From NCBI GenBank assembly GCA_000004695.1, contig CM000154.2, positions 4,512,001-4,576,000 on the forward strand: a DNA stretch of 64,000 bases, in the 5' to 3' direction. Positions 60,699 to 62,755 of this stretch are shown here, piece by piece. The translations under genes were made by a program, and so were the position numbers. This DNA comes from Dictyostelium discoideum. Its lineage: Eukaryota. The notes beneath the pieces are model-generated. The model had not been told where the DNA came from. It made no database searches and was given only the letters and a program-made list of their open reading frames with translations. Position 1 is the stretch's first letter, and every line of letters begins with the position of its first letter.

Positions 60699-62755
60699 TT
60701 AAAAGACGTGAATCAAAGAACGAGGGACAGTTCTCAAGTCCCAATCGACAAAGTAAACTATGGCCATAATTGAAAAAAGTCCAATTGCTGATAAGACTAT
60801 TGAATAGGATAGGATGGATTAGTATTTTATTTTTATTTTTTATTATTATTATTATTATTATTATTATTTTATTAATGTTTTATTTTAAAAAATATAAACT
60901 TACAATGCCATAAATCATGAGTATCTAATAAAAAAAAAAAATTAATAAAAATAATTAATAATTAATAATTTGATATTAAATATATATAGATATATATATA
61001 TGTATTTATTTATAAAAAATAAAAACATACCCCAATAATTAAAGATGATACATGGTCTATTCAATAATAATGATTCATCAAAAGTATAAAACTTATTTGT
61101 AACGGAAATTTCAAAGTAATACAAACCAAATCCCCATGATAAAAACATAATAGCGAATAATACCCAAACAAATAGATATACTTTTTCACCATATTTTATT
61201 TTCATTGCTATATAATAAAATAAATAAATTAAAAAGTCTAATACCATTACTCCTCTATTATTATTTATTATTATTAATATTAATATTTATATGTAGTTTA
61301 ATTATTAGTATAAATTATAGTATAGAAAGGTGTTGTTGTTATTTGTTTATTATTAATTACTACTAATACATACAAAATTAAATTTGAAAAGTTTTTAGAA
61401 ATACTACCCATCATACCATAGACAGCAAAAGCAATGACAATAGCCCAACTTAAAATATTTGCAATTAAAAGTGCAAAAAATCTTGGTTTATCATCAATTG
61501 TTGAAGGACGAATTAATTTCTTTAATGTTCTCCATAAAAATCCAATACTTGGATTTAAATCCATTCTTTTATGTGCTAATAAATATGATGATCCTATAAT
61601 TGATACATATCCAAAAACAATAACAAACATTACCCAAAATCTATATATTTGATGAAAATAATAAAAATAAAATATTAGTATAAACTTTAATATTATATAC
61701 TATCAAATATTAAAAATAAATATATATAATTATTATTATTGTTATTATTATTATATTTTTTAAAAAAAAAACACCTACGCATAAATATTAATATTTGTTA
61801 ATGAAAGGAAATTAAAGAAAATAAATAATGAAAAGAAACCATATGCTTTAAATGCACCTGCTGTTAAAGTTGCATGTCTTTTTTGATGTAATGCAAAAAA
61901 TAATAATCCTGATCCAATTAACATATATGTTGTATCTATTTTATAAAATTTAATAGTTAATAAATTATTATTATTATTATTATTATTATTATTATTATTA
62001 TTATTATTATTATTATTATTATTATTATTATTATTATTATTATTATTATTATTATTATTATTATTATTATTATTATTAATAATAACATGTAATTTATAAA
62101 TTAAAATATTTATATATATATATACATACCAAATTGAAAATTTAATCTAGAAGGACAAACATGATATAATGCAGAGAAAATACCTTCTAAAATAATTGTT
62201 AAACCTAAACTATAGTATAATGATAAATCTGTATGTAAACCATGAATACCATCTTCTTGATGTGATGTGAAATGAGTTATCAATATGAATGATGTTCCTG
62301 CTATCAAGTAAAATAAATTCGAGAGTACATTGTTGAATGATGGTATACCTAAAAATGGTCTTAAACATTTATAATTATAATAACATTTAATCTCTGGATC
62401 TGTTATTTGAAATACAACAAATTGAATTGATGGTAAACTATAAAATGCTGATACTATTAATAATATTTTCCAAAACTAAATAAAATAAAATAAAAAAAAA
62501 GTATTATTATTTTATTATTTTATTAACCAATTTGAAAAAAAAAAAAAAAAAAAAATATTCAATACATACATATTTCAAATAAACAGGTTGAGTTTTAAGT
62601 TGCCTTCTAGTTTCAGATTGTGATAATAGCTCTTGAACGTTTAATACTGTTGTCGATGATGATGATGATGAAGCATTATCTAATAATGATTCTTCCTCGT
62701 TATATCCTAAATCGATCATTGTTCCTCCTGTTTTGGAGTTATTTGATTTCTCCAT
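60699..62755 (-). CDS. SID1/SIDT-family (CREST-superfamily) transmembrane protein, short form lacking N-terminal extracellular domain, 7 exons: complement(join(60699..60796,60904..60924,61031..61254,61374..61640,61779..61935,62130..62475,62570..62755)), about 432 aa
   Basis: CYYNYKCLRPFLGIPSFNNVLSNLFYLIAG matches SIDT [56 protein letters not shown] matches [63 protein letters not shown] matches [20 protein letters not shown]...IYVF*. Exon phases are consistent (total 1299 nt). All donors are GTATGT/GTAGGT/GTAAGT. Confidence 0.7.
61964..62087. repeat. (ATT)n about 40 units inside intron 2 of the SIDT-like gene
   Basis: Uninterrupted attattatt... run. Confidence 0.9.

Follow-up and report, generated by a model that had tools for sequence, protein, structure and literature searches.

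A single-copy SID1/SIDT-family gene without an ectodomain in Dictyostelium discoideum, and its possible role as an intramembrane lipid hydrolase

Gene structure, transcript and surroundings of the locus

The window analysed here, a stretch of 64,000 nucleotides of Dictyostelium discoideum DNA, displays extreme A/T richness together with short GT..AG introns, both of which are typical of Dictyostelium. Joining of seven minus-strand exons between positions 62755 and 60699 gave an open reading frame (ORF) of 1299 nt encoding 432 residues, and the six introns, ranging from 94 to 194 nt in length, are all of the GT..AG type. The start at 62755 and the end at 60699 given in the earlier note were both exact, its count of seven exons stood and its estimate of about 432 residues proved to be the precise length of the joined frame; the motifs it had listed were also found, namely YHVCP (Y166-P170) and HDLWHF...VF at the C-terminus. 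The encoded protein is identical, residue for residue, to XP_001733041.1 (EDR41030.1; UniProt B0G177), a "transmembrane protein" of D. discoideum AX4, and the locus is a single-copy D. discoideum gene.

All features of the gene are given on the minus strand. Exon 1 (62570..62755) encodes residues 1-62, which form the predicted cytosolic N-terminal tail with the sequence EEESLL at residues 20-25 and a helix at residues 40-53. Exon 2 (62130..62475) encodes residues 63-177 and the first base of the D178 codon, and comprises TM2, TM3 and TM4 along with C93 and C99 in a luminal loop, S163 (62175-62173), H167 (62163-62161) and C169. The D178 codon is divided by intron 2, which contains an uninterrupted noncoding (AAT)38 microsatellite (61964..62077); this intron is 194 nt long here, whereas in two related strains it measures 83 nt and 128 nt, indicating that the length of the AAT repeat is polymorphic. 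The rest of the D178 codon, TM5 and TM6 are encoded by exon 3 (61779..61935), whereas exon 4 (61374..61640) contributes TM7, a short loop helix and TM8, which constitute the SID1-specific insert in the CREST core. TM9, TM10 and a luminal loop with C387 (61052-61050) follow in exon 5 (61031..61254). The entire HxxxH motif (H396, 60919-60917; H400, 60907-60905) is carried by a micro-exon of only 21 nt, exon 6 (60904..60924), and the remainder of TM11, the C-terminal ...PRSLIHVF and the TAA stop codon (60701-60699) by exon 7 (60699..60796).

The gene was shown to be transcribed, to be spliced as seven exons and to begin at the ATG at 62755. A contig of 1518 nt from run SRR24091725, whose RNA origin was inferred from its being intronless, contains the complete ORF without introns, and its alignment to the window falls into seven blocks whose edges coincide with the exon boundaries, so that all seven exons proposed earlier were reproduced. 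Nucleotides 1-107 of this contig aligned at 100% to 62862-62756, defining a minimum 5' UTR of 107 nt (62756..62862) that is collinear with the genome, and nucleotides 1407-1518 aligned with one mismatch to 60698-60587, defining a minimum 3' UTR of 112 nt (60587..60698). Within the 5' UTR, an in-frame TAA (62761-62759) is located two codons 5' of the ATG in both the genome and the contig.

The region upstream of the gene was examined in a chromosome-level D. discoideum assembly (L004), which matches the last 12 kb of the window at 99.75% identity and continues past its end. The intergenic region there is A/T-rich, measures 1924 bp and ends at a divergently transcribed Cupin_8/JmjC gene. The upstream neighbour lies on the opposite strand in four genomes, namely this assembly, two related strains or species and D. 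purpureum. In D. purpureum (L003 3769-5427, opposite strand) the neighbour encodes a 473-residue protein with a weak TIG-domain match and not a JmjC protein; the divergent orientation has thus been conserved, but not the gene order upstream. Ectodomain-like coding sequence was searched for by tblastn, using 13 ectodomain regions of long homologues against the window and three loci, and this search, of low sensitivity, returned only chance matches, the best of which (E=0.038) was about 50 kb off. An ad-hoc hidden Markov model of the ectodomain (ECD) reached at most 11.6 bits, the noise level, whether applied to the 10 kb upstream of the gene or to the N-terminus of a homologue from Spironema (described below), the ectodomains being too divergent for a profile of this kind. 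Comparison of the gene with two related strains gave dN/dS values of 0.02 and 0.09, and the gene is under strong purifying selection.

These data bear on whether the gene model could be an artefact, be it a truncated model, a pseudogene or the 3' portion of a gene that extends to ectodomain exons further upstream, as might be suspected from the length of metazoan family members (750-950 aa) and from the existence of an older AX4 model of 777 aa. We regard this as very improbable. The obsolete 777-aa model (UPI00004E2F31) begins at the same ATG (MEKSNN...), and its extra length was traced to mis-splicing and read-through into the downstream gene DDB_G0295693. In the transcript contig the 5' UTR is collinear with the genome and a stop codon precedes the ATG in frame, the upstream neighbour is transcribed from the opposite strand in all four genomes, the dN/dS values are low, and short orthologues are present in many species, with transcriptome ORFs among them; neither the 64-kb window nor the 10 kb upstream contained ectodomain-like coding sequence in the low-sensitivity searches described above. 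There are no ectodomain exons at the locus, and the remark of the earlier note that no upstream exons were visible within 1.2 kb has thus held, given the 5' UTR and its stop codon, the 1924-bp gap to a divergent neighbour and the short orthologues.

Several further observations were made around the gene. In UPI00004E2F31 the mis-splicing occurs after exon 4 and again at the micro-exon encoding HDLWH. The downstream gene DDB_G0295693 occupies 59270-60330 of the window on the minus strand and encodes an Asn-rich protein of 322 residues without a Pfam match. In the upstream intergenic region, a segment spanning 63545-64000 and about 230 nt past the window end (approximately 8540-9231 of L004) has no equivalent in L001 and L002, two related strains. 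For L001, the blastn comparison with the window was length-filtered, since AAT and poly-A repeats swamp the unfiltered output. This segment, which contains an A52 run (63670-63721) and an imperfect inverted repeat of 75 nt (L004 8742-8816 and 8856-8930), may be a small inserted element. A tRNA scan identified no tRNA genes in 59000-64000, leaving a tRNA-targeted retroelement upstream of the gene without support.

Family assignment and membrane architecture

Within CREST, the protein falls into the SID1 branch. A search with the Pfam profile SID-1_RNA_chan (PF13965), which the earlier note had proposed as a check, matched residues 20-432 with E=2.9e-78 and 264.3 bits against a cut-off of 28.7 bits; the match covers only positions 171-594 of the 594 in the profile, leaving 1-170 unmatched. 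No Pfam model for TMEM8, Per1/PGAP3, alkaline ceramidase or PAQR was found at E<=1, SID-1_RNA_chan being the sole family. Among PDB sequences, human SIDT2 was retrieved with E=1e-61, query residues 20-432 corresponding to SIDT2 405-832 at 33% identity, followed by SIDT1 (E~4e-58) and C. elegans SID-1 (E~6e-29), with all other matches at noise level. The similarity to metazoan SIDT1/2 noted earlier is hence far beyond chance. An AlphaFold2 (AF2) model calculated from 49 homologues (pLDDT 87.7, pTM 0.86) displayed ten long helices, and only residues 1-36 fell below a pLDDT of 50. When this model was compared with the PDB using Foldseek, the best 23 matches were all SIDT1, SIDT2 or C. elegans SID-1, with TM-scores of up to 0.74, and ACER3 and AdipoR1/2 came next, at E>=0.017. 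The other CREST branches (TMEM8, Per1, ACER, PAQR) were ruled out by the Pfam result and by the 23 SID1-family structures ranked first, and the assignment to TMEM8 or Per1 that would have spoken against the earlier proposal was not seen. PDB entries 8K12 and 8K1D, which resemble ECD-deleted constructs, are actually focused transmembrane domain (TMD) maps of full proteins.

Modelling and alignment together show that the protein corresponds to TM2-TM11 of SIDT, with ten predicted membrane helices. The earlier description of a protein consisting only of the CREST domain is correct in that the seven-helix core is present, the CREST core of SIDT being formed by TM3-6 and TM9-11 (PMC10272179, PMC13562381) and the motifs SxxxH, D and HxxxH falling on these seven helices; however, three SID1-specific helices (TM2, TM7 and TM8) and an N-tail of about 60 residues are also present. 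This tail, predicted to be cytosolic, shares homology with the last part of the cytosolic loop of SIDT. It contains no hydrophobic 19-mer, the maximum KD value being 0.03, which argues that TM1 is absent and that there are ten and not eleven transmembrane helices. Given the even number of helices and a SIDT-like orientation, both termini would be cytosolic and the zinc site would lie near the luminal or extracellular leaflet.

In human SIDT2, S564, H568, D579, H796 and H800 form an H3-S-D zinc site (Qian et al. 2023, PMC10272179), and these residues align with S163 and H167 (TM4), D178 (TM5) and H396 and H400 (TM11) of the Dictyostelium protein. Two luminal disulfides located above the zinc site of SIDT2, C484-C570 and C490-C787 (PMC10272179), align with C93, C99, C169 and C387, so that both pairs are kept as conserved cysteines. 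All nine positions, five catalytic and four cysteine, are invariant in every complete homologue examined.

The closest structural relatives are thus human SIDT2 and SIDT1 (PDB 7Y63, 8JUN, 8K12), which share with the Dictyostelium protein the 33% identity over TM2-TM11 and the fold noted above, the zinc site, both luminal disulfide pairs and the C-terminal ...VF. In contrast to these proteins, the Dictyostelium protein is without a signal peptide, the two beta-rich extracellular or luminal domains and TM1, and it keeps only the last 40 or so residues of the long cytosolic loop; it has ten helices instead of eleven, a predicted cytosolic N-terminus and no known nucleic-acid-binding module. C. 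elegans SID-1 (PDB 8HIP, 8XBS) and CHUP-1/TAG-130 belong to the same Pfam family and have the same fold, although they are more distant than the mammalian proteins (E=5.9e-29 by sequence and E~1e-12 by Foldseek) and the dsRNA-recognising ECD of SID-1 is absent in the Dictyostelium protein. ACER3 (6G7O; E=0.017) and AdipoR (5LWY, 6KS0; probability 0.99) are distant Foldseek matches that share the seven-helix core and the SxxxH / D / HxxxH zinc motif. Unlike these, the Dictyostelium protein has the three extra helices TM2, TM7 and TM8, does not match the corresponding Pfam families and, by homology to SIDT (PMC10272179), would have a luminal rather than a cytosolic active site.

Distribution and phylogeny of ectodomain-free forms

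Orthologues of 376-428 aa that start at an equivalent 'ME...' were found in six other dictyostelids, with D. purpureum, Tieghemostelium, Polysphondylium, Cavenderia and Acytostelium represented, and in Physarum, and forms with longer tails that nonetheless are without TM1 in Cavostelium, Luapelamoeba and the ichthyosporean Chromosphaera perkinsii. Taken together, the short SID1-like proteins of protists (for example DICPUDRAFT_79858 of D. purpureum) range from 376 to 521 aa, share the build without ECD and TM1 and the invariant catalytic and cysteine residues, and are orthologues or close relatives whose differences are confined to the N-tail, in its length and sequence. When 1.84 billion representatives were searched exhaustively with phmmer, 1116 relatives were recovered, and length classes were drawn from the 95 near-full-length matches in the top 150 of these. 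In 25 of the 95, the first helix is preceded by at most 110 residues (median length 407 aa), and in 60 by more than 250 (median 795 aa), the named ones in the latter class being animal proteins.

A neighbour-joining tree of the membrane domain was calculated with 200 bootstraps. The short forms were recovered as one clan in 114 of these, and the short clan together with a protein of the hemimastigote Spironema in 195. The Spironema protein (Spironema sp. BW2, Hemimastigophora; 568 aa) contains an extra strongly hydrophobic helix, FILGITLTIVFVAVFLLFVCY, preceded by about 130 Cys/Asn-rich residues. As it possesses this additional N-terminal helix yet groups with the short clade, its placement hints, mildly, that TM1 and the ectodomain were lost on the way to the short form, which would then not be ancestral.

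Two other relatives deserve mention. In Planoprotostelium fungivorum, PRP72989.1 (1333 aa, annotated as 'E3 ubiquitin protein ligase') has a SID1-like membrane domain at 87-451 that is followed by about 880 residues, and stems either from a genuine fusion or from the merging of two gene models. A short SID1-like fragment of 110 aa, MDP2434518.1 ('MAG: archaeon'), falls into the same 90% cluster as metagenomic proteins of 431 aa and is therefore probably a eukaryotic contamination of an archaeal bin.

Probable function and significance

With the zinc site intact and the ectodomain absent, the best reading of B0G177, to which we assign a probability of about 0.6, is that this single-copy, ectodomain-free SID1/SIDT-family gene encodes an intramembrane lipid hydrolase of the luminal leaflet that is slow and depends on zinc, and not a dsRNA receptor. 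The activity would most likely be ceramidase-like, as in human SIDT1/2. Slow hydrolysis of C18 ceramide by human SIDT2 is abolished by H796A/H800A (PMC10272179), and ceramidase activity of SIDT1 and SIDT2 has been independently confirmed in a study that also mapped RNA binding to the ECD and found the TMD alone to oligomerise (PMC10770124). A 2026 review describes the lipid-hydrolase rates of human SIDT1/2 as very low and questions their physiological meaning (PMC13562381). The protein would probably form a homodimer via TM2, and its probable location is a post-Golgi or endolysosomal membrane; its targeting there may depend on an acidic dileucine-like motif that is conserved in the N-tail. This motif, [DE]xxx[LI][LIVM], is represented by EEESLL in D. 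discoideum and was found in the N-tail of seven of eight dictyostelids and of Physarum, compared with a chance expectation of 22% per shuffled tail and with the dictyostelid sequences not being independent of one another; its conserved position suggests adaptor-mediated sorting to post-Golgi or endolysosomal membranes. Capture of dsRNA in the manner of C. elegans SID-1 is not to be expected of B0G177, because the nucleic-acid-binding ectodomain is absent.

Two other functions were weighed against lipid hydrolysis. The protein could transport or bind sterols in the manner of ChUP-1/SIDT, acting through a transmembrane CRAC-like motif, its hydrolase residues then being structural or regulatory; this we consider unlikely. 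SIDT1/2 bind dehydroergosterol and affect cholesterol uptake via a transmembrane CRAC motif (SIDT1 633-659, LSTQIYYMGRFK; PMC5547113), and the aligned D. discoideum segment, IIGSSYLLAHKR, retains the tyrosine (Y246) and the basic residue. However, it has Ile in place of the leading V/L and so departs from the strict CRAC consensus, and although the D. purpureum segment, VVGSSYLLAHKR, does fit the motif, CRAC is a very loose pattern. The invariance of the five catalytic residues across the clade favours catalysis over mere binding, and the two roles are in any case compatible and not mutually exclusive.

Transport of nucleic acid without an ectodomain, for example of cytosolic RNA or DNA into lysosomes in an RNautophagy-like process mediated by the N-tail, appears more unlikely still, even though the family is named for dsRNA transport. 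The N-tail aligns with the end of the SIDT2 cytosolic loop and has a small basic patch, 'TRRQLK', and the cytosolic region of SIDT2 has been described as RNA-binding (PMC12370622). Against this, the tail is short and its residues 1-36 are predicted by AF2 to be disordered, the RNA binding of SID-1 and SIDT1/2 maps to the ECD that is missing here (PMC10770124, PMC11194109), and the membrane domains of SIDT show no conduction path wide enough for RNA (PMC10272179, PMC13562381). Uptake or transport of dsRNA by B0G177 is judged unlikely, the ECD being missing, and a slow lipid hydrolase remains the preferred reading.

The finding itself is not new, as the gene, its family assignment and its length were already public and a curated model has been available since the B0G177 entry. 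The CREST paper (Pei et al. 2011, PMC3146951) names the D. discoideum member as one of few SID-1 family proteins from outside the animals, and a 2008 sid-1 phylogeny included it as XM630477 (PMC3061602), which we infer to be the same gene. The absence of the ectodomain is visible in any domain database, and searches of the literature for the SID1 transmembrane family with Amoebozoa, for SID-1 with unicellular holozoans and for this DDB gene found no paper discussing the ECD-less form.

The value of the finding is practical and not surprising. SID1/SIDT proteins are disputed as dsRNA channels, cholesterol transporters or slow lipid hydrolases, and a natural core-only member whose zinc site is intact, in a haploid host in which knockouts are easily made, provides a clean test of the membrane domain alone. 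A member free of an ectodomain also bears on whether ectodomains were gained or lost in the evolution of the family. As a tentative proposal, which we hold to be possible though somewhat doubtful, the ECD-less proteins may form an old, separate branch of SID1 that spans Amoebozoa, many uncultured protists and an ichthyosporean; these proteins may be purely luminal-leaflet lipid hydrolases. If this were true, hydrolysis would be the core function of the family, and the handling of nucleic acids in animals would be a property of the ectodomain-bearing branch.
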